Below, one piece after another: positions 3,605 to 15,072 of a stretch of 20,307 nucleotides of DNA. The stretch is from the IMG/VR virus record IMGVR_UViG_3300032164_003094, one strand, 5' to 3'. The notes below the pieces were generated by a model. It searched no databases. It was not told the origin of the DNA and saw only the letters and a list, made by a program, of their open reading frames with translations. Position 1 is the first letter of the stretch, and each line of letters starts with the position of its first letter. A program made the translations under genes and the position numbers. The stretch comes from a virus.

Positions 3605-4381
3605 ATGACGAAGAAGAAGACGAATACGGATACGAAGACCCAGCAGGCCCCCAAGCCGGCGAAGATCAAGACGAAAACCGAGGTCCGGAACGCGTCGGCC
3701 CAGGCCGACAAGCTCGTTCGCGGGATGGACAACAACTCCGTGTCGATCCAGAAGCACCAGCAGGAGATCGAGAAGAAGATCGCGGAAAACGCGAAGAGCG
3801 CCGTGACAGTGCGCTCTCTCATCGCCGGCATCTCGAACGTCGCCCTCACCGCCCAGCCCGCTCCCGCTCCCGCGAAGGCCAAGCCGGCCGCGAAGGCCAA
3901 GCCGGCCGCGAAGGCCAAGCCGGCCGCGAAGGCCAAACCGACCTCGGCGGCCAAGCCGGCCGCGAAGGCCAAGCCGGCCGCGAAGGCCAAGCCGGCCGCG
4001 AAGGCAGCGGCAAAGCCAGCGTCCAAGTCGGCTTCAGGCGGGGTGGAGTGGAGGACGAAACACAAGCTTGACATCGTCGCGCGAGACATCGTCGCGTCGG
4101 CCGACAAGCCCCTGACGGCCGCGGAAATCTACCACGGCTGCGAGGCTTACGCCAAGAAGCACGCCTTCAAAGACGAATACGGCGACGACGACTGCTGGAG
4201 CCGCCAGTCGCTCTACAACCAGCTCAAGATCGTCGCCCGCTTCACCAAGTCCGGCGACGGGGCGACGGCGACCTACCAGAACGCTGCCTCGAAGGCTGCC
4301 TCGAAGGCTGCCACGGACCAGGACGCCGACGAGTACGTCAAGAAGGTCGAGAAGAATCAGACCGTCGCGAACGTGAGCTAA
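3605..4381 (+). CDS. Histone H1-like / AlgP-like basic DNA-binding protein with (AKPAAK)n repeats, 258 aa.
   Basis: N-terminus is Lys/Thr-rich. The central section carries 7-8 copies of AKPAAKAKP, characteristic of bacterial H1-like proteins (AlgP/Hc1 type). The C-terminal 110 aa look globular. A strong SD precedes the gene and a hairpin terminator follows it. Confidence 0.8.
   Translation: MTKKKTNTDTKTQQAPKPAKIKTKTEVRNASAQADKLVRGMDNNSVSIQKHQQEIEKKIAENAKSAVTVRSLIAGISNVALTAQPAPAPAKAKPAAKAKPAAKAKPAAKAKPTSAAKPAAKAKPAAKAKPAAKAAAKPASKSASGGVEWRTKHKLDIVARDIVASADKPLTAAEIYHGCEAYAKKHAFKDEYGDDDCWSRQSLYNQLKIVARFTKSGDGATATYQNAASKAASKAATDQDADEYVKKVEKNQTVANVS
3874..4005 (+). repeat. 18-bp tandem repeat (gccaagccggccgcgaag, about 6-7 copies with one interrupted copy) encoding AKPAAK.
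   Basis: Near-perfect DNA-level tandem repeat directly visible in the sequence. It is a candidate for repeat-number variation. Confidence 0.8.
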
Positions 4382-4395
4382 GGACGCCATGTCCC

Positions 4396-4434
4396 AGTAC
4401 AGGTCCGGAAATCGGGAGTCCGGACCTGTACTTT
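4396..4434 (+). terminator. Intrinsic-terminator-like hairpin downstream of the histone-like gene: 14-bp stem (agtacaggtccgga/tccggacctgtact), 9-nt loop, then CTTTCCGTT.
   Basis: Perfect inverted repeat 4396-4409/4419-4432 followed by a short T-run. It lies 15 nt after the stop codon at 4381. Confidence 0.5.
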
Positions 4435-4442
4435 CCGTTCGA

Positions 4443-4748
4443 ATGGAAGGGCTTCTCAAAACCTACGCGACGAGGCTCGCTCGCAAAACCGTTCTCCAGC
4501 AGGTCGGTCTCCCGGGCCTCGAGGTCCTGAAGACGGAAGAGCACTTACTGGAGATGGCCCTCTCTAGGCTAAGGGAGGAGCTTTTGGGTATGCGAGAGCG
4601 CCCAAAGGATAGTACGGTGGCCGACATGGTACGCCGGGAGGCCTCCATGCTCGTCGAGCGTTATGCGGACGACGAGGGAATACGGCTGGCCGCCCGTACG
4701 GAAGTAGAGTCCTTGAGTGATAACGACATTCTTCCAAGGCTCCACTAA
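4443..4748 (+). CDS. Hypothetical alpha-helical protein, 101 aa. Start taken at the ATG after the terminator hairpin (MEGLLKTY...); the track starts it at 4389, inside the hairpin.
   Basis: ORF with protein-like composition. The earlier start would put the terminator stem inside the coding region, so the 4443 ATG was preferred. Confidence 0.45.
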   Translation: MEGLLKTYATRLARKTVLQQVGLPGLEVLKTEEHLLEMALSRLREELLGMRERPKDSTVADMVRREASMLVERYADDEGIRLAARTEVESLSDNDILPRLH

Positions 4749-5357: not shown

Positions 5358-5590
5358 ACTGTGACTATTGCGGAGAGAAGACGGAGAGGACGGTCGAGGC
5401 GGTCGAGGAGAACGTTCCCGTCTGCCATCGGTGCGCGATCTTGCTCTCGAGCCCGATGACGGGCTCGAGGCTGATCCGAGGCCATATGAACCTGCGGCTT
5501 AGGGAGAAGATGGGGAAACGGCAGCTCGACCTTCTGTTCGAGAAGGCGATGCCCATCTTAGAGTCGATGAAGAGGAAGGACGCTTCCTAG
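5354..5590 (+). CDS. Small zinc-ribbon-like protein, 78 aa (CDYC...CHRC).
   Basis: Two CxxC pairs spaced about 20 aa apart. ATGA start/stop overlap with the upstream gene. Its stop shares a CTAG tetranucleotide with the stop of the convergent sigma factor gene. Confidence 0.5.
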   Translation: MNCDYCGEKTERTVEAVEENVPVCHRCAILLSSPMTGSRLIRGHMNLRLREKMGKRQLDLLFEKAMPILESMKRKDAS

Positions 5591-6276
5591 CTCGCCGCGG
5601 CGAGCATCCGCACTGCGGCCGGAATCCGCTGCTTGATGTCGCGGATGGTCTTCGTGGTGACCTTTCGATCACCGAACGAGAGGGACTCGCGCACGACCTC
5701 GGCGCTCGCGCCGGATCGGACCGCCCGGACATACCGTGCCAAATCCCACTCGCCTTTCATCCGCAGGGCGTGCTCGAAGGACTCCAGCTTTTCGGTGAAC
5801 GCGTCCGGCTCAACCCGCGCGTTCACGTCCTCGACTGTGTCGAGGAGCGAACGGCCGTCGTCCGGGCCCACGGGCGCGTCGATGGAGTCTTTTTCCCGGT
5901 CATACCGGCGCTTCTTGTGGACGAGGTTGACGCACACGTTGTTGGCCACCATGTAGACGTAGTGGCCGAACGAGCTCTTGTTCGGATTGTGCGCGGACCG
6001 CGTGCAGTTTTTGTGGATGATCGCGACGAAGACCTCCTGGATGAGCTCCTCCATCGAGTACCCCTCCACTCGGAAGAACTTGTGTACGATCTTCGTGACG
6101 TCGAGCTTTTTCTCGATGACGTCGATGCCGAGGGGTACGGACGCTACGGCCTTTCCGTTCTCATCCACTTCCGCCTTTGAAAACCTGGGCCAAGGTAGCT
6201 TGTCGGGGATCCTCTTCAAAGGCTTCCCGGGGACTCTGATGATCTTGGCCTGTTGGGCCAGCTTTCCGATTTCCAT
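5587..6276 (-). CDS. Sigma-70 family (ECF-like) RNA polymerase sigma factor, about 229 aa.
   Basis: Region 2-like segment: EELIQEVFVAIIHK...FGHYVYMVANNVCVNLVHKKRRY. Region 4-like HTH: DLARYVRAVRSGASAEVVRESLSFGDRKVTTKTIRDIKQRI. ATG at 6274-6276 preceded by GGAGAG at 6283-6288; the track starts it 2 codons earlier at a GTG. Confidence 0.7.
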   Translation of the reverse strand: MEIGKLAQQAKIIRVPGKPLKRIPDKLPWPRFSKAEVDENGKAVASVPLGIDVIEKKLDVTKIVHKFFRVEGYSMEELIQEVFVAIIHKNCTRSAHNPNKSSFGHYVYMVANNVCVNLVHKKRRYDREKDSIDAPVGPDDGRSLLDTVEDVNARVEPDAFTEKLESFEHALRMKGEWDLARYVRAVRSGASAEVVRESLSFGDRKVTTKTIRDIKQRIPAAVRMLAAAS

Positions 6277-6312: not shown

Positions 6313-6344
6313 TGCAGTATATCCCCCCTAGAGGATATACTGCA
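6313..6344. promoter_or_regulatory. Perfect 12-bp inverted repeat TGCAGTATATCC-N8-GGATATACTGCA in the divergent intergenic region between the sigma factor gene and gene 6396-7016. Candidate operator and back-to-back -10 elements (TATACT on both strands).
   Basis: Directly visible palindrome. TATACT is 5/6 of the -10 consensus and appears in both orientations, roughly 40-55 nt upstream of the two divergent starts. Confidence 0.5.
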
Positions 6345-8712: not shown

Positions 8713-8967
8713 TCACGGGCAGCCCACCGGAGGGTGCATCGCGGCGTTCAGCTCCGGCTCGACCTCCTGCCAATTCTCCACGTCCGTAAGGGCCTCACCC
8801 CACGTGGGGCTCATGGGAGAGAATACCCCGCACTTGCACTCCAGCCAGCACGATCCCCTCCCGCCGAGCGCCAGTAGCCCAGGCTCGAGGCAAGCCGGAC
8901 AAGGGTGCCTGGCGGCGGTGAAGGCCCTCCGGATCTCCCGGTCCTTCAACATTTCCTCGCGCGTCAT
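8713..8967 (-). CDS. Small Cys-rich protein, about 84 aa (CPAC...CWLECKC).
   Basis: Its ATG at 8965-8967 overlaps the TGA stop of the dCTP deaminase gene (ATGA). It has two Cys clusters. Confidence 0.4.
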   Translation of the reverse strand: MTREEMLKDREIRRAFTAARHPCPACLEPGLLALGGRGSCWLECKCGVFSPMSPTWGEALTDVENWQEVEPELNAAMHPPVGCP

Positions 8968-9659
8968 TGAAACATCTTCCACGACTGTGACGGGATTGGG
9001 CCCATCGCGAGATCGCCCTTATAACTACCCTTGGACTGGTAGCTGTCGACCTCTCCGACGAGCGTGTGGAATCGCATCTGGCAGAACCTCATACCCGGGT
9101 AGACGATGAGCGGGTGCAGAACCGCCACCTCGAGCGTGTACTGGCCGTCGAACCCCGGGTCGCCATATCCGGCCGTAACGTGGACGAAGCAGAAGAGACG
9201 GCCTATTGAGGACTTCCCGTCTATGATGGGGACGAATTTGTCCGTCGCCACGCGCTCCTCAGTGTGCATCAGGTAGCCGATCCCGGGCAGGAGAACGAGG
9301 CCCCGGTCGTCCATCTCGTACCTGGCCACCCGGTTCTCCCTGGCGGAGTCAAGACAGTTCTGGCCGGCCTTCGCCGCTATCTTCTCGCCGGGGGCATATT
9401 TCGGGCGGAGCCTCTCCCCCGGGACGCCGAAGGAGCCGTCGTCCCGCATCCCGTCGCACTCCCAGTCATCATCGCTCCCGGCCTGGACGAGAGCCCTATA
9501 TACGGCGACGTGGCGTCCGAGCGTCAGGTCGTACGAGGCCGGGTTGATCCGGTCCTCGAACCTGGGGTCGCCGGACTCGAACGGGTCTATCCTGATCGTC
9601 CCATCGCGGATGGCGTCGCGAATCTGCTTGCCGGAAAGAATGCCGCCGTTTGGTCCCAT
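8964..9659 (-). CDS. dcd: dCTP deaminase, about 232 aa, with a C-terminal extension of about 40 aa relative to typical enzymes.
   Basis: ILSGKQIRDAIRDGTIRIDPF ... NPASYDLTLG ... GYGDPGFDGQYTLEV are the dCTP deaminase / dUTPase-fold signature motifs. Start taken at ATG 9657-9659 (MGPNGGILSG), not the upstream track start at 9839. Confidence 0.8.
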   Translation of the reverse strand: MGPNGGILSGKQIRDAIRDGTIRIDPFESGDPRFEDRINPASYDLTLGRHVAVYRALVQAGSDDDWECDGMRDDGSFGVPGERLRPKYAPGEKIAAKAGQNCLDSARENRVARYEMDDRGLVLLPGIGYLMHTEERVATDKFVPIIDGKSSIGRLFCFVHVTAGYGDPGFDGQYTLEVAVLHPLIVYPGMRFCQMRFHTLVGEVDSYQSKGSYKGDLAMGPIPSQSWKMFQ

Positions 9660-9683
9660 TAAAGTCTCCAGGTATGATTTTAC

Positions 9684-9968
9684 ATGCCGATGACTGAAGA
9701 AGAAAAGCGGGAGGCCCTCGTCATCGCCGAGTCCATCGGCCCCGTGCAGATCTTCGAGACCCTCCAAGACCTCATCGCCAGGGAAAGGAGCCTTCTGGAG
9801 ACCCCTATGGACCGGGACATGCGGGCCATAACGCTGCACAACCTCGCCGTCCTGACCGCCGCCTGCGCAGGGTATGAGGAGGCGGCGAAAAAGTTCAACG
9901 AGGCTTTATCCAAGGCCAAACAGGCCCGCGATGACGGGGAAGGAACGGGAGTCGACGAGGATCCCTGA
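9684..9968 (+). CDS. Small hypothetical helical protein, 94 aa, with one TPR-like motif.
   Basis: Divergent from the dCTP deaminase gene with only about 24 nt between the starts. Its 3' end overlaps the convergent polymerase gene by about 63 nt. AITLHNLAVLTAACAGYEEAAKKFNEALSKAKQ looks TPR-like. Confidence 0.4.
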   Translation: MPMTEEEKREALVIAESIGPVQIFETLQDLIARERSLLETPMDRDMRAITLHNLAVLTAACAGYEEAAKKFNEALSKAKQARDDGEGTGVDEDP

Positions 9969-12902
9969 CTCCTCGGATATGATGACGTTCCCCTTCGAGT
10001 CGACGACGCGCAGTATGTCGACCCCCTCCGTCAGCACGCACACGGCGTGAAGCTTCTTCTGGTTCCGCTTGGTCATCGGGGACCTCAGCACCCAGCGGAC
10101 GACCTCCCTGTCGCCCGACGGGACTTCCCGCTTCTCCGGCCTGGCCTGGACGCTAGACTTCGGCTCCGAAGAGCCAAATCCGGGGTCCATGGAGTCGGAT
10201 AGGTCAATCTCAACGGGGGCCGGGGCCGGGATTGCCGGCTCGGACGTACCGTTCGCCTCCTTCGACACAGGGAGGGGGACGTCGAAGTCGTCCATTGAAA
10301 AGTCGTTCACTCCGGCTGTTCTCGGTGGCGGCGGTGGCGGCTCTTCCTCCTTCGGCGCCGCTGGCTTCTCTGCTTCGACCCTTGCGGACTCTGGGGTATC
10401 CGTCCTCTCCTCCGCGTTCATGTCAACCGGCCGTCCGACGATCTCAACAGGGTCGGCCCCGGATCCCGTCGTATGAACACGGTCCACCATGGTCTCGACG
10501 ACAACGTCTTTCGCCGGCTCGGTCGGCACCACCTCCTCGGACCTCTCCGGCTTCGGTTCAGACGTCACGGGAACCCTCCGTATCCATTGTTCGAGGAACT
10601 CAGGGACCTTCTGGTATATACGTCCATCCGCGAAGTATTGGTCCTTCTTCAGCTTACCCTTGAACGTGCCGTCCTCGGCGGTATCCTTCGGATTGACGGG
10701 AGCCCCGTCCACCATCGCGAAGTAGTCGAAGCGAGCCTTCCAGTTACAGTCGACCCCAGGCTCCGTGAGCAGTGGGACATCCCACGCGCGGCCGTGGGCC
10801 TTCTGCAGCCTCCAAGGCTCGGTCATCCACTCGTCGAGCTTACGGACGATCTCCATGAGGAACTCTGGCTTGATCTCATAGACGACCTCGTCGTGCACCG
10901 TCAGGACGTAGCGGCACCGGTCCTTCCACCCGAGCGTCCGGAGCTGCTTGTCGACGTAGCACATCGCAAACTTCAGGACGTCGGCCGAAGTCGCCTGAAT
11001 CGTGTAGTTGATCGCGCAGCGTTCGGCCTTCGACCGGATGCCGCGAATCGGAGAGTCGATCGTCGGGATGGGGATCCGACGGCCGAACGCTGTGTAGATG
11101 CACTTATGCTTATGGGCGTACTTCTTTTGGAACTCAACATACCCCATGAGGATGGGAACGTCGTTCCGGAGGTTCTCCATGTGCTTGGAGGCTTCCTCAA
11201 TGGAACAGCCGACGTTCCTCTGGATGGCGCCCGCGCCGCCGCCGTAGATGAACGCGAAGTTGCATCGCTTACCACGGTTACGCTCGTCCTTGTTAATGTC
11301 CTTCTTACCGAAGAGCGTGCGGGCCGTGATGCTATGAACGTCCCCGTCCTCGTAAAGGAATGACTTCGTCCAGATCGGGTCCCCGGAAAGGTTGGTGACG
11401 ACGCGCAGCTCCTCGCCTGCATAGTCGAGCTTCACGAGCATCCACCCCTTCCGCGGGATTATGCAGGTTCGAAGCTGCTTGAATAGGTCCGGCTTATCCT
11501 CGTCCGAATCGCGAGGTATGCCCTGGAAGTTGATTCCGGAATACCCGTCCGCGATCTTTCCAGCCTTCGACGAGAGGCGCGTCGTGTCAGTGCCTATCTG
11601 GCTAAAGTTCGGCCGGACGTCCCCATATTTGTCGACCGCCTTCGACAGCGGGTTCAGGTACGAACCCAACATCTTCTGGTAATGGCGCCATTCCAGGATG
11701 AGTTCGAAGATGCTCTCGCGCTTCAGGCTCCCGTCCTTGTCGGTGATGCCCTCTCGCACAACGGAGAACTTCGCGCCGTACACCTTATGAAGGGACTTCA
11801 GGGCCTCATCCTTGAGGCTATACTGCTTGTCATCCACCGACCCGTCCTCTTCCTCCTCCGAGTCCCCGCCCCCGCCACCACCCTCCTGACCCTCGTTCTC
11901 CGCCGCGAGCATCTCGGCCGTCGGCTTCAGGCGCAGTCCTTCCGAGTCCGTGATGAGGGCCTCGGAAAGCTGCTGGACGGCGCCAATGTTCAACGTAATC
12001 CAACGGCCCGTCTTGCCTGTCTTCCCCTCTATCACCTCGCGGATTGAGTCCCCGACCTTGTGCATCTCGGACGTGCACTCGGTCCGCAAGTGTTCCACAC
12101 GGTCCACGTCCACGTGGACGCGGTTTCGCTCAAGCTCGCGGATGACGTTGCAGAACGACTTTTCCAGATCGTAGATCCTCTGGTCGGAGTCGGAGAGTTT
12201 GGGGTGCAGGACCTCCCTCAGCTTGTACGTGAAGATGCCGTCGGAACAGCCATACGCAAGGCCCTCCTTCGGGTGCAGGACAGCAAAGTTGTACCCCTGC
12301 TTATCCCGCTTCATCTGCTCCATCTTCTCGGGCGTAAAGAGGTCCGAGAGCTCGAGCATCTCCACGTTGAAGTGAATCTTGGAAAGCTGCTTCAGGCCGT
12401 TCGGCATCTGCTTCAGCGGTGAGATGACCTTCGACATGAGGTATGTGTCCTCATACTCGGCGAGTTTCCAGTGGTCTTTCCCGGTGACGGGATAGAGGAA
12501 CTCGCAGTCGAACTTGGCTCCGTGGAACACGACCCTGCAGCCGTTCACAAGGCGGGTGATCTCCTCCCACGCCTCATCCCATGGCAGGTTCCCGGAGTCC
12601 TCCGGATAGTGTCCGACGGGGACGTAGTAGCCGTTATATCCGTCGAACGAGATGCAGAGCCCGGCGACCTTGTCGACCGTCCTCATGCCATGGCGAGTTT
12701 TCTTTCCATCCCCGAAGAACTCGTCCTGGTAGACGCGGTTGTCGAGCCCGGTGGTCTCCAGGTCCAGAGAGCATGTCTTGCGTTGGAGGCAAAGGTCAAC
12801 AAGCTTCTTAAGCCGGTCCACGGAGGTGACGAGGTGGAACTTGTACCCCTGCATCCACTCACGCTGAGTGTCCACCTTGTCGTCCATCTGCTGCAGAAGC
12901 AT
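9906..12902 (-). CDS. Family A (Pol I-like) DNA polymerase, 998 aa. It has an N-terminal 3'-5' proofreading exonuclease and no 5'-3' nuclease domain. An acidic/Gly insert is present, and there is a C-terminal low-complexity extension of about 260 aa.
   Basis: Exo I LDLETTGLD, Exo II HGAKFDCEF, Exo III YGCSDGIFTYKL. Pol motif A LDYAGEELRVV, motif B RNRGKRCNFAFIYGGG, motif C TVHDEVVYE. Confidence 0.9.
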   Translation of the reverse strand: MLLQQMDDKVDTQREWMQGYKFHLVTSVDRLKKLVDLCLQRKTCSLDLETTGLDNRVYQDEFFGDGKKTRHGMRTVDKVAGLCISFDGYNGYYVPVGHYPEDSGNLPWDEAWEEITRLVNGCRVVFHGAKFDCEFLYPVTGKDHWKLAEYEDTYLMSKVISPLKQMPNGLKQLSKIHFNVEMLELSDLFTPEKMEQMKRDKQGYNFAVLHPKEGLAYGCSDGIFTYKLREVLHPKLSDSDQRIYDLEKSFCNVIRELERNRVHVDVDRVEHLRTECTSEMHKVGDSIREVIEGKTGKTGRWITLNIGAVQQLSEALITDSEGLRLKPTAEMLAAENEGQEGGGGGGDSEEEEDGSVDDKQYSLKDEALKSLHKVYGAKFSVVREGITDKDGSLKRESIFELILEWRHYQKMLGSYLNPLSKAVDKYGDVRPNFSQIGTDTTRLSSKAGKIADGYSGINFQGIPRDSDEDKPDLFKQLRTCIIPRKGWMLVKLDYAGEELRVVTNLSGDPIWTKSFLYEDGDVHSITARTLFGKKDINKDERNRGKRCNFAFIYGGGAGAIQRNVGCSIEEASKHMENLRNDVPILMGYVEFQKKYAHKHKCIYTAFGRRIPIPTIDSPIRGIRSKAERCAINYTIQATSADVLKFAMCYVDKQLRTLGWKDRCRYVLTVHDEVVYEIKPEFLMEIVRKLDEWMTEPWRLQKAHGRAWDVPLLTEPGVDCNWKARFDYFAMVDGAPVNPKDTAEDGTFKGKLKKDQYFADGRIYQKVPEFLEQWIRRVPVTSEPKPERSEEVVPTEPAKDVVVETMVDRVHTTGSGADPVEIVGRPVDMNAEERTDTPESARVEAEKPAAPKEEEPPPPPPRTAGVNDFSMDDFDVPLPVSKEANGTSEPAIPAPAPVEIDLSDSMDPGFGSSEPKSSVQARPEKREVPSGDREVVRWVLRSPMTKRNQKKLHAVCVLTEGVDILRVVDSKGNVIISEESGILVDSRSFPVIAGLFGLG

Positions 12903-12916
12903 GGCGAGACCTTACA

Positions 12917-14026
12917 GTGGGTGTACCGTGTAGGACCAGGGAAGCCAAATTGAGCCAGGACCATTACGCTATCTTGGGACTGCCGAGGACGGCGTCCCAA
13001 GAGGACATCAAGAAGGCCTTCCGCAGGCTCGCGGTCGAGCACCATCCGGACAAGGGCGGAAACGCCTCCAGGTTCAAGGAGGTCAACACGGCCCACCAGG
13101 TCCTGACCGACGAGGGAAAGAAAGCGCGATTCGACGCTTATGGGGACGAGAACGCACAGCATCCGCCCCGTCCACCCCCGAGGCGGCCCGGGAACTTCCG
13201 TGTAACGATGGACGACCTGAACTCGGTCTTCAACAACCATTTTGACCCGTTCGGCCCGTTCCACGGCGGGGGAGTCGCGGACTTCGCCAAGAAAGCACGT
13301 CCCGTCCAAGACCCCGGCGACGACATCAGGATCAAGGTCTCCGTTCCGATGGAGGAAGCCTTGGTCGGGACGAAGAAGACGGTCCGATTTGACCGCGGGG
13401 ATGCACAGCTTTGCAGAAAGTGCGCAGGATCCGGGTCTCAGAACGGCAGGCCGCAGGGGATCTGCCTGACGTGCGACGGGAGTGGGAGGACCATAGACAT
13501 GGTGGCCGGCCATCCGGCCGTCCGACAGTGTCGACAATGCCGTGGGTCCGGGAGCTCGAGCGCGGACAGGTGCCAGGACTGCTCCGGGTCGGGAAAGGAG
13601 GCCGTGCAGAGGGAGATCACGGTCACCATCCCGAAAGGACTGCGCAGCGGGCAGGACATGAAGGTCAAAGGGCTCGGCAGGCCGGGGGCACCGCCGGGGG
13701 ACCTGATTTTGACCGTCGAAATCCGGGACTCCGAAAATTGGTGGGCTCGAGGAGAGTCTCTCTTCACAACGGTCGAGGTGGGGATGACGGACCTTCTCCA
13801 CGGCGGAAGCACGACGACGCGCATGCCGGACGGCCGGGAAGTCTCGGTGACCGTCCCCGCCGGGGGAGGCCGGGCGACCGCCCAGGGGGCGTGGAAGAAC
13901 CCCGCAGGGCAGGACGGAGACCTGACGGTCTTGTTCAAGGTGAGGCCGGCCAGGGGGTTCAGCCCGCGCGCGGAGCGCCTGATGCGAGAGCTTCTTGAAG
14001 AGCTTGGGGGTCGGGAACGACAATGA
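12917..14026 (+). CDS. dnaJ: Type I DnaJ (Hsp40) co-chaperone: J domain, linker, four CxxCxGxG zinc-finger repeats, then C-terminal substrate-binding domains.
   Basis: DHYAILGL...HHPDKGG...FKEVNTAHQVL (J domain). CRKCAGSG, CLTCDGSG, CRQCRGSG, CQDCSGSG. Start is GTG 12917, or alternatively TTG 12950 preceded by AGGGAAG. The long minus-strand ORFs over this gene are Arg/Pro/Gly-rich shadows. Confidence 0.85.
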   Translation: MGVPCRTREAKLSQDHYAILGLPRTASQEDIKKAFRRLAVEHHPDKGGNASRFKEVNTAHQVLTDEGKKARFDAYGDENAQHPPRPPPRRPGNFRVTMDDLNSVFNNHFDPFGPFHGGGVADFAKKARPVQDPGDDIRIKVSVPMEEALVGTKKTVRFDRGDAQLCRKCAGSGSQNGRPQGICLTCDGSGRTIDMVAGHPAVRQCRQCRGSGSSSADRCQDCSGSGKEAVQREITVTIPKGLRSGQDMKVKGLGRPGAPPGDLILTVEIRDSENWWARGESLFTTVEVGMTDLLHGGSTTTRMPDGREVSVTVPAGGGRATAQGAWKNPAGQDGDLTVLFKVRPARGFSPRAERLMRELLEELGGRERQ

Positions 14027-14441
14027 CGACCCGTCGCTTCGCAGCCCACGCCAGGACTATCGAGTTCACGACCTCCTGAAGTTCGCCCTCGGACGCGTGC
14101 TCCCAGCAAGGCGGGATGCGGCGCTTCCCCGTGACGTTCTTGGACGTACAAACGTGCCGGTCAGCCATGATGCACGTCCCGACGTGGGCGCACTCCGGGC
14201 GGAGCAGCTTCAGGAGCCCGGCCACCGGGTCCTTCACCGTCCTCCGTAGCTCCACGTCCCACCCCATCTTGGCGGCCTCCACCCCGTCGCGCGACATGAC
14301 GGCGCAGCCCCTCAGGACGTCCCATAGTGGGACGAGGCCCTTCACGGAGGCGAGGGCCGGGATGCGCTCGAAGGCGAACTCGGAGACGTCAATCCTCTCG
14401 CCGGTCTTCAGCGTCAGCGCGTACTCGTCAGGGATGATCAT
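13959..14441 (-). CDS. Hypothetical protein, 160 aa, with scattered Cys/His (CAHVGTC...HVC...CWEH).
   Basis: ATG at 14439-14441 overlaps the end of the upstream zinc-finger gene by 14 nt. Its 3' end overlaps the dnaJ 3' end (convergent). No family recognised. Confidence 0.45.
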   Translation of the reverse strand: MIIPDEYALTLKTGERIDVSEFAFERIPALASVKGLVPLWDVLRGCAVMSRDGVEAAKMGWDVELRRTVKDPVAGLLKLLRPECAHVGTCIMADRHVCTSKNVTGKRRIPPCWEHASEGELQEVVNSIVLAWAAKRRVVIVVPDPQALQEALASGAPRAG

Positions 14442-15072
14442 CGGCTTCGAACGCGAACATGTCGTCCGTGACGAGGGACGCCTCGTCCATCCTCCCCCGC
14501 AGCTTCAGCAGGGCGGACACCATCTCCGGCGTGGACTTCTCCAGCTTGTCGTAGTCGTACGCCACGTGGTCGAGGAGCCGGCAGAACTTCACGTAGTCCG
14601 ACATGGCGCACCTGTCCCGCAGCCGGGCGAGCTTCGTCTCGAGCAGCTTCAGGACGAGCGGGACGTCGGCCCATTTCTCGGACACGTAGCCGGAGCCGCG
14701 GTCGGACAGCTCCTTGAAGTCCGGGACGTCCGGGCGCCTCGGAACCTTGACGTGGTACCGGCGCTCCAGGTCCGTGAGCGCGTCCATGAAGCGGAGCTTT
14801 CGGAACTCCGCGTACAGGTTCAGGCCGTCCCAGTTCTTCTTGCACTTGAAGCACCGGACGTAGGACGGACGGCCGCCCGACCGCGGATAGTAGCGGCCGG
14901 ACGGCTTGTTGTCCGCCCCGTGGAAAGGGCACTTGATCTGCGTCGGCGTCGTCTCGTCCGGGACGTCCGAGATGCCGTTCTCAACCAGGCAGTCGAAGGC
15001 CGAGTAGCGCTCGTGGACCGCGTGGACCCGGCGCTTTATCCACTCCTGGACTGATGTCTTCTCGAGCTCCAT
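14428..15072 (-). CDS. Protein with a primase-type CHC2 zinc finger (CPFHGADNKPSGRYYP...CFKCKKNWDGLNLYAEF), about 214 aa, and no recognisable TOPRIM or catalytic domain.
   Basis: The CPFHG...C.KC...G....Y motif is the DnaG-type zinc-binding domain. Start taken at the ATG at 15070-15072 (MELEKTS...), immediately after the stop of the upstream gene. The track's longer ORF to 15219 would overlap the upstream gene out of frame. Confidence 0.6.
   Translation of the reverse strand: MELEKTSVQEWIKRRVHAVHERYSAFDCLVENGISDVPDETTPTQIKCPFHGADNKPSGRYYPRSGGRPSYVRCFKCKKNWDGLNLYAEFRKLRFMDALTDLERRYHVKVPRRPDVPDFKELSDRGSGYVSEKWADVPLVLKLLETKLARLRDRCAMSDYVKFCRLLDHVAYDYDKLEKSTPEMVSALLKLRGRMDEASLVTDDMFAFEADDHP

Follow-up and report, generated by a model that had tools for sequence, protein, structure and literature searches.

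The 20,307-nucleotide (nt) stretch of DNA analysed here (the window; IMG/VR record IMGVR_UViG_3300032164_003094) encodes a zinc-finger DnaJ head-to-head with a family A DNA polymerase, and leaves only 47 nt between the two start codons. This locus raises two questions: how the divergent transcription of both genes could begin within so short a gap, and what a virus would do with a DnaJ of its own beside its polymerase gene. We consider the following joint explanation to be on balance probable: the DnaJ belongs to a phage clade that has kept it paired with the polymerase gene, the gap holds two mini-promoters and gives a leaderless polymerase mRNA, and the DnaJ recruits host DnaK to phage clients, of which replication proteins are the most likely. 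The features at the junction are as follows.

9906..12902, minus strand: family A DNA polymerase gene (polA), 998 amino acids (aa); Pfam, PHROG 17
12903..12949, between the divergent genes: polA/dnaJ intergenic region, 47 nt
12950..14026, plus strand: dnaJ-like gene, 358 aa, TTG start, TGA stop; Pfam, alignment of relatives, AlphaFold2/Foldseek, ratio of nonsynonymous to synonymous substitution rates (dN/dS)

The DnaJ and its place beside polA

The initial annotation had proposed that the starts be settled by aligning the N-termini of related polymerases and DnaJs, and such an alignment, of nine lineages first and twelve finally, fixed both (12902 and 12950). Because the polymerase N-terminus (residues 1-16, MLLQQ[ML]DD..) is conserved in every lineage and a stop codon lies just 3 codons upstream, the polymerase starts at Met1, ATG 12902; conservation of the same residues in all relatives rules out Met17, which had been put forward as an alternative start. 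The DnaJ start aligned at [MLV]-S-x-D-[HY]-Y in every close relative, of which most start with TTG, some with GTG and two with ATG. As the gaps of the relatives (38, 42, 44, 47, 48 and 49 nt) are not multiples of 3 apart, and two of them carry in-frame stops upstream, the stretch before the dnaJ TTG is non-coding, and the GTG at 12917 chosen by the gene caller (369 aa) is rejected on both counts as 11 codons too long. The distance between the starts, previously given as 14-47 nt, is the longer of the two values; the earlier left boundary of the dnaJ region, 12850, falls inside the polymerase gene. With a gap of 47 nt, the upstream part of any polymerase promoter must overlap the dnaJ 5' region, as had been foreseen.

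Domain matches, alignments and a structural model together show the predicted protein to be a divergent, complete class-A-like DnaJ co-chaperone. It had been described as a complete type I DnaJ, and a J domain with HPD, four CxxCxGxG repeats and both C-terminal domains (CTDs) are all borne out by Pfam, the translation and the model.

12959..13135, plus strand: J domain, residues 4-62, PF00226 at 71.5 bits
13154..13324, plus strand: linker in place of a Gly/Phe-rich (G/F) region, Pro-rich and then DDLNSVFNNHFDPFGPFHGGG; from alignment
13325..13942, plus strand: CTD I and CTD II, predicted client-binding domains, residues 126-331, PF01556 DnaJ_C at 74.1 bits, with the zinc-finger region inserted within
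13412..13594, plus strand: zinc-finger-like region with four CxxCxGxG repeats, CRKCAGSG, CLTCDGSG, CRQCRGSG and CQDCSGSG
13964..14017, plus strand: predicted C-terminal helix, a candidate dimerisation helix, residues 339-356, SPRAERL..ELLEEL; conserved in the clade
13959..14441, minus strand: convergent gene, 160 aa, whose last 68 nt overlap the dnaJ 3' end

The HPD motif is at 13043-13051; the loop between J-domain helices II and III is short. H32, P33 and D34 were invariant in alignments of 18 and 60 sequences, as were all eight cysteines of the zinc motifs; the GxG of the first repeat is lost in some clade members. The DnaJ_CXXCXGXG family (PF00684) matched residues 155-215 at 32.6 bits against a cut-off of 32.7, that is, 0.1 bit short. 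Residues 69-125 are Pro-rich, with Gly and Phe limited to a short FDPFGPFHGGG, whereas long G/F runs are seen in the cellular DnaJs aligned with it. The AlphaFold2 model, for which the 60-sequence alignment was used (mean predicted local distance difference test score, pLDDT, 84.7; CTDs >90), contained four J-domain helices, a low-confidence linker at 69-108, beta-rich C-terminal domains made of beta-sandwich strands, and a final helix. Within the linker, pLDDT was <50 at residues 69-85 and 104-108, and one helix was predicted at residues 88-96. The best Foldseek matches in the PDB were all Hsp40/DnaJ proteins (DnaJA2, Thermus DnaJ, S. pneumoniae DnaJ and Ydj1), with the CTDs of Ydj1 and DnaJA2 among the matched regions; entries 7ZHS, 6JZB, 1NLT and 4J80 were matched at E values of 1e-15 to 4e-21, and phmmer aligned the protein end to end with 6JZB. 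In the NCBIfam DnaJ model TIGR02349, residues 4-350 covered profile positions 1-352 of 354. The class A features that are kept comprise HPD, a basic helix II, the KFKE and KKA..D motifs, the eight zinc-binding cysteines and both client-binding domains, to which the clade adds motifs of its own in the C-terminal domains (WWARG, GAWKNPxGxDGD and SPRAERL). The C-terminal helix is encoded where dnaJ overlaps the 3' end of the convergent gene.

Searched against 5.8 billion proteins, the window DnaJ matched 16 clusters belonging to the clade, at 48-100% identity, after which the next-best DnaJs dropped to ~33-37% identity and were mostly of the cellular Patescibacteria type. All 12 related lineages that were examined have the polA/dnaJ pair, and its gap measures 29-49 nt. 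Every readable contig of the clade has the same order: polA (minus strand), the short gap, dnaJ (plus strand), a convergent gene of 146-160 aa overlapping the dnaJ 3' end, and a primase zinc-ribbon gene. When the search was led by the polymerase instead, two more distant relatives were found, on contigs of 222 and 164 kb and with 67% and 59% polymerase identity; each has a DnaJ in the same slot (gaps of 29 and 42 nt; DnaJ identity 44% and 30%). The dN/dS of dnaJ was 0.18-0.32 at dS 0.6-1.3. These comparisons show dnaJ to be held under purifying selection in one fixed slot and indicate that its pairing with polA is old and specific to the clade. A recent, unconserved insertion of a host gene, which the initial annotation had named as the outcome that would undo its proposal, is contradicted by the presence of the pair in every relative examined and by the purifying selection; the drop to ~33-37% identity for cellular DnaJs and the lack of a relative in 185,579 genomes likewise exclude a recent host origin.

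Other searches widened this set little. A scan of metagenome contigs with a polymerase profile found nothing, and a DNA-pattern search of metagenome contigs added two further contigs. The short pattern GACCKTACA-N4-6-TGTAYCGT was too loose for genome contigs, where it gave at least 120 chance matches, none of them encoding a relative. No DnaJ lies near the polymerase of LR745208, which at 34% identity is the closest among GenBank phages.

An exact copy of the window polymerase sequence lies on a 75-kb metagenome contig in ENA. About 33 kb of the source contig was readable (L001 and L018; L numbers denote individual loci), and the statements below on the absence of Hsp70, GrpE, capsid and terminase genes from this contig refer to that part. 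One relative is on a 273,770-bp contig listed in IMG/VR, and relatives of the polymerase at 55-70% identity occur on contigs of up to 439 kb. No relative was found among 185,579 species-representative bacterial and archaeal genomes, and GenBank phages gave no nucleotide match to the whole window with megablast. As the related contigs are large, and neither a cellular-genome relative nor a GenBank phage match at the nucleotide level was obtained, the window probably comes from the replication module of an uncultivated huge phage.

Promoter-like elements in the 47-nt gap

The core of the gap is near-invariant and reads ACCTTACA-N5-TGTACCGT, two back-to-back, outward-facing copies of an 8-bp element, TGTANNNT, that resembles a -10 box. 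Four lineages have an identical 21-nt core, ACCTTACAGTGGGTGTACCGT, and the others a near-identical one, despite near-saturated synonymous sites in the flanking genes. The positions that never vary in this core comprise ACC-K-TACA in its left half and TGTA...T in its right half, which amounts to TGTA plus a final T on each strand.

12909..12916, minus strand: -10-like element toward polA, TGTAAGGT, a TANNNT preceded by TG, which ends 6 nt before the polymerase ATG
12922..12929, plus strand: -10-like element toward dnaJ, TGTACCGT, which ends 20 nt before the dnaJ TTG; putative dnaJ promoter
12939..12944, plus strand: Shine-Dalgarno-like stretch GGGAAG in the putative 13-14-nt dnaJ leader; purine-rich equivalents in most relatives

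All 12 lineages have the polA-side element, either TGTAAGGT or TGTACGGT, with N6 to the ATG, or N5 in L015. Since a TANNNT box 6 nt before an ATG matches the leaderless signature of Deinococcus-Thermus (PMC12340547), we infer that the polA mRNA is leaderless, from a -35-independent promoter that starts at the A of the ATG. On the dnaJ side the element is TGTA[CT][CT][GA]T in 10 lineages, L021 included. In L159, where the gap is 29 nt, it is replaced by GATAGGGT, with a TAGGGT box, 5 nt before a GTG, and dnaJ looks to be leaderless there too. Neither gap element is accompanied by a conserved -35 sequence, and a standard two-hexamer promoter was discarded, as scanning 12500-14500 for the sigma-70 consensus gave no -35/-10 pair within the gap.

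The core could instead be something other than a promoter pair: it might form an RNA hairpin, act as the operator of a dimeric regulator (TACA-N-TGTA) or provide polA with a Shine-Dalgarno sequence (UAAGG), with polA transcribed by read-through from the upstream minus-strand operon. We regard this as improbable. TACA..TGTA is indeed an inverted repeat; its half-sites, however, are 4-6 nt apart at the polA/dnaJ junction and 7-9 nt at a second junction (19530-19552), a range unusual for a dimeric operator, so that two independent elements fit better than one. A structured RNA in the gap was rejected on a folding z of ~0, and Rfam and tRNA scans of the window returned nothing. TAAGG does lie 7 nt before the ATG and is complementary to the 3' end of 16S rRNA, but the NNN of the element varies (AGG, GGG, TTT, CGG, CTC, ACA and others), leaving TANNNT rather than a purine run as the common feature; in L012 and L014 a T-to-G change (TAAGGT to TACGGT) keeps TANNNT and removes the possible Shine-Dalgarno AAGG. 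Read-through is geometrically possible with dnaJ as a lone reverse gene in a minus-strand array. Against the whole proposal stands the position of the motif, which is fixed 5-6 nt before 32 start codons.

That position could be followed across the window and its relatives. Seven of the 11 TGTANNNT copies in the window are intergenic, against 0.7 expected by length and 1.6 from composition-matched shuffles (p ~0.0015). The arrangement TGTANNNT-N5-6-ATG occurs three times, each time at a real gene start (polA at 12902, a 166-aa gene at 16750 and a 78-aa gene at 19559), while shuffles gave a mean of 0.04 occurrences and never three. Nine related loci contain 30 occurrences, of which 29 are followed by an open reading frame (ORF) of at least 60 codons (expected 0.02-0.13 per locus), and the positions that were compared with gene calls in those loci coincide with called starts. 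The further elements in the window are these.

9677..9684, minus strand: leadered element TGTAAAAT, which ends 17 nt short of the dCTP deaminase start codon, an ATG (gene at 8964-9659); GGAG lies in the interval
16756..16763, minus strand: leaderless-type element TGTATTTT, which ends 5 nt before the ATG of the 166-aa gene (16250-16750); kept in L009, L010 and L017
19530..19552, both strands: second back-to-back pair, in which TGTAACCT (minus strand) faces a gene for a protein like the major vault protein (MVP) and TGTAGGGT (plus strand) ends 6 nt before ATG 19559

The chance expectation of a second back-to-back pair is 0.00-0.04. For the 78-aa gene (19559-19795, plus strand) the gene caller begins at 19592 (67 aa); the relatives and TGTAGGGT-N6-ATG place the start at 19559, and we infer that this gene, too, is leaderless. 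In L010, L159 and L160 the dCTP deaminase gene has a leaderless-type start. The TGTANNNT-N5-6-ATG rule thus offers a simple means of finding promoters and correcting start codons in this clade, and two gene-caller starts were corrected in the window (dnaJ from 12917 to 12950, the 78-aa gene from 19592 to 19559). Elements this compact would also explain how the genes can be packed head-to-head with just 29-49 nt between them.

A candidate reader of the TGTANNNT elements is a sigma-like protein of 229 aa (5587-6276, minus strand), which has a weak Sigma70 region 2 / ECF-type match (Pfam 1.8e-5; PHROG sigma factor 9e-6) and is conserved in relatives. If this protein reads TGTANNNT, the elements would represent a new, -35-independent class of phage promoter. 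In the divergent gap between its gene and a 202-aa gene (6408, plus strand), a perfect 12-bp inverted repeat, TGCAGTATATCC-N8-GGATATACTGCA, spans 6313-6344; each arm carries an outward-facing TATACT, and L010 retains the repeat in part. This repeat may serve as an operator or as a further, third divergent promoter that is symmetric but of another class.

Several other features were noted near these elements. The 166-aa protein (16250-16750, minus strand) matches PHROG 335 'phosphatase' at 3e-29 and, weakly, macro-domain and DarG ADP-ribosyl glycohydrolase families, and could be a counter-defence enzyme against DNA ADP-ribosylation. Between the end of the MVP-like gene and TGTATTTT, a hairpin with a perfect 15-bp stem (TGAGGCCCGTCACGC / GCGTGACGGGCCTCA; 16766-16800) resembles a terminator, without a T run. 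The MVP-like protein itself (892 aa; 16808-19486, minus strand) matches the MVP shoulder domain (PF11978, 2.6e-29), Vault_3 and, weakly, SPFH/Band 7; most relatives have it (886-911 aa), whereas the loci of L008, L016 and L159 lack it. A 2023 preprint (bioRxiv 10.1101/2023.11.10.566534) reportedly describes phage MVPs.

Possible roles of the DnaJ

Under the joint explanation that we favour, the 47-nt gap would suffice because its two outward-facing 8-bp TGTANNNT elements, judging by their pattern, would serve as -10 boxes. The polA-side element would start transcription at or beside the A of the ATG (~12902), and the dnaJ-side element at ~12936, giving dnaJ a 13-14-nt leader with a weak Shine-Dalgarno sequence ahead of its TTG; this combination suggests low translation. 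With the predicted start sites ~34 bp apart, both RNA polymerase footprints would cover the same ~75 bp, so that one template would fire in one direction at a time. By analogy with its family, the HPD-bearing J domain would stimulate the ATPase of host DnaK/Hsp70, and the C-terminal domains would hold phage clients for handover to Hsp70. Gene calls in ~33 kb of the source contig (L001 and L018) included neither Hsp70 nor GrpE, and an IMG/VR scan with a GC-rich back-translation of DLGGGTFD matched 16 contigs and not the 273,770-bp relative, a weak negative. As no gene for either protein was seen in the readable parts, recruitment of the host DnaK is the most likely arrangement.

The surroundings of the pair form a replication and nucleotide-metabolism module, with genes for an SNF2 helicase, a DnaB-family helicase (L001:945-2471), a NUDIX protein, a primase zinc-ribbon protein, a dCTP deaminase, the sigma-like protein, MazG-like and HD nucleotidases, and RecA; dnaJ is the sole plus-strand gene within this long minus-strand array of replication genes. 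Its strict linkage to the polA, primase, DnaB-type helicase and SNF2 genes suggests that replication proteins are the most likely clients. A narrower proposal is that the DnaJ is a dedicated co-chaperone of replisome assembly, which would pass the polymerase, the DnaB-type helicase or the putative loader of that helicase on to host Hsp70 and whose dose relative to the polymerase would be set by a minimal bidirectional promoter of 29-49 bp that fires in one direction at a time. We put this forward tentatively and consider it rather doubtful in so specific a form. No loader resembling lambda P or DnaC was recognised: an ORF of 288 aa that lies upstream of the helicase gene has no Pfam, NCBIfam or PHROG match.

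Alternatively, the DnaJ may be a general proteostasis factor that brings host Hsp70 to abundant or large proteins, such as those of the virion or the 892-aa MVP-like protein, in which case its adjacency to polA would reflect early or middle timing only. This is what has been predicted for jumbo-phage DnaJs (PMC7824862, PMC12619734). The DnaJ neighbours in L003, L004 and L006 are lectin-like proteins, IF3 and a methylase, and the MVP-like gene has the same class of promoter. On the other hand, all 12 lineages keep a DnaJ gene in the slot between polA and the primase-region genes, at DnaJ identities down to 30%, and the DnaJ stays in L008, L016 and L159, from whose loci the MVP-like gene is missing. 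We judge proteostasis unlikely as the main role, though a serious contender.

A role in counter-defence or host takeover seems very unlikely. The DnaJ would here act as a decoy or competitor in DnaJ-dependent immune sensing (bNACHT25), or modulate the heat-shock response as RB43 Rki does through sigma32; both ideas are raised for phage DnaJs in passages of PMC12619734, which cite Conte 2025 and Perrody 2012. The DnaJ evolves at ~2x the rate of the polymerase (30-44% against 59-67% identity), and a macro-domain/DarG-like gene lies in the neighbourhood; yet a dN/dS of this size gives no sign of an arms race, and whereas Rki-type proteins consist of a J domain only, the window DnaJ keeps its zinc fingers and both client-binding domains with the key residues invariant.

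A number of observations weigh against one part or another of the joint explanation. With respect to the protein, the TIGR02349 score of 231 bits is below the equivalog cut-off of 377.2 and the window DnaJ has no typical G/F region, which makes normal coupling to DnaK an assumption only. With respect to the clients, synteny is the sole basis for the replication proteins, and among four other DnaJ-bearing phage contigs in IMG/VR the gene is near a helicase and primase in one and has neighbours unrelated to replication in three. With respect to the gap, TG directly abuts TANNNT, unlike the extended -10 of E. coli, where it is one base away; the dnaJ-side element of L012 is just 11 nt from the start codon, which puts the Shine-Dalgarno-like AAGGA at or before the predicted transcription start; the dnaJ side of L160 has no clear TGTANNNT; and polA could be read through from upstream minus-strand genes, antisense to dnaJ. 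Finally, as regards the huge-phage assignment, no capsid or terminase gene was found among the ~33 kb of the source contig.

The genes next to the pair add further detail. The overlap between dnaJ and the convergent gene is kept in relatives at 32-70 nt, and the 68 nt shared in the window leave no room for a terminator, so that transcription from the two sides must collide. The convergent 160-aa protein has a cysteine cluster, C-x6-C-x7-C..C; family searches with it, with the 174-, 213- and 288-aa neighbours and with the 78-aa gene product gave no match. In the polymerase, the 3'-5' exonuclease and polymerase domains are followed by ~270 aa of C-terminal extension. In this extension (9906-10700, minus strand; residues ~735-998), an acidic, Pro-rich, low-complexity linker is followed by a conserved domain of ~65 aa that ends in LFGLG; the terminus is invariant in four lineages, and the tail could bind a clamp or another partner. 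Farther away, an ORF at 3605-4381 (plus strand) contains about nine to eleven tandem 18-nt units at 3834-4041 that are Ala/Lys/Pro-rich (AKAKPA-like) and resemble histone H1-like or other basic DNA-binding tails, without a family match, and a perfect 14-bp inverted repeat, AGTACAGGTCCGGA-N9-TCCGGACCTGTACT, lies at 4396-4432, at the very start of the ORF at 4389-4748. In the replication modules of more distant relatives, LAGLIDADG homing-endonuclease genes flank the SNF2 gene and a TnpB/Cas12f-like gene is also present (L159 824-1717 and 3807-4604; L160 19566-21239); mobile elements therefore enter this otherwise syntenic region.

Comparison with known systems

What is new here is a deep and distinct DnaJ clade, the constant placement of its gene head-to-head with polA in a large clade of huge phages, and a compact promoter architecture with putative leaderless starts; all three extend known kinds. 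A clade of huge phages that keeps its own DnaJ beside the polymerase gene offers a concrete, testable case for chaperone-assisted assembly of the replisome in uncultured phages.

The domain order of the window DnaJ (J domain with HPD, four CxxCxGxG repeats, CTD I and II, C-terminal helix) and its predicted fold are those of cellular class A DnaJs such as E. coli DnaJ, S. pneumoniae DnaJ (6JZB), DnaJA2 and Ydj1. It differs from them in being ~33-37% identical, in having a Pro-rich linker with FDPFGPF in place of the G/F region, and in being encoded within a phage replication module, not in a grpE-dnaK-dnaJ operon.

A full-length DnaJ had at first been thought unusual for a phage, which does not hold. 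The window protein matches PHROG 14336, a family of full-length phage DnaJs, over its full length (2.9e-60), and full-length DnaJs at 25-31% identity to it are also present in Lak megaphages and other huge phages. Phage DnaJs have been described for group 2.2 jumbo phages (Iyer et al. 2021, PMC7824862) and for moraphages (PMC12619734), two papers in which a head-to-head pairing of DnaJ and polA is not described. Like the J-proteins of these large phages and Rki of RB43, the window DnaJ is phage-encoded and presumed to use host Hsp70. The chaperone homologues of moraphages were attributed to recent transfer from Flavobacteriales, the tree displayed being that of DnaK (PMC12619734), whereas the window DnaJ belongs to an old clade without a close cellular relative; Rki, in turn, consists of a J domain only.

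With regard to the gap, leaderless genes are also common in Actinobacteria. In Deinococcus-Thermus, such genes bear an experimentally characterised signature, a -10 motif placed 6-7 bp ahead of the ORF (PMC12340547). The window elements share with it a TANNNT close to the ATG (here 5-6 nt), no required Shine-Dalgarno sequence and usefulness for start correction, and differ in their conserved TG directly 5' of TANNNT and in being phage-borne and known from sequence alone. In bidirectional promoters as described by Warman et al. 2021 (see also PMC12825309), the two directions share a single -10 element; their starts flank it or fall inside it, at distances of 10, 18 or 23 bp from each other. The gap resembles these promoters in its short pseudo-symmetrical sequence, in divergent transcription and in the proposed mutually exclusive binding of RNA polymerase, but falls outside their definition, with two hexamers (12909-12914 and 12924-12929) 9 bp apart and predicted starts ~34 bp apart.

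A functional parallel may be drawn with lambda and P1. The dnaJ and dnaK genes were first found as host genes required for lambda DNA replication; host DnaJ, DnaK and GrpE free P from DnaB in lambda, and in P1 they act in RepA activation. As in those systems, the phage proposed here has a DnaB-type helicase, and an action of Hsp40/Hsp70 on the initiation of replication is suggested by analogy. In lambda and P1, however, the chaperones are all host-encoded, whereas here the J-protein is encoded by the phage itself.

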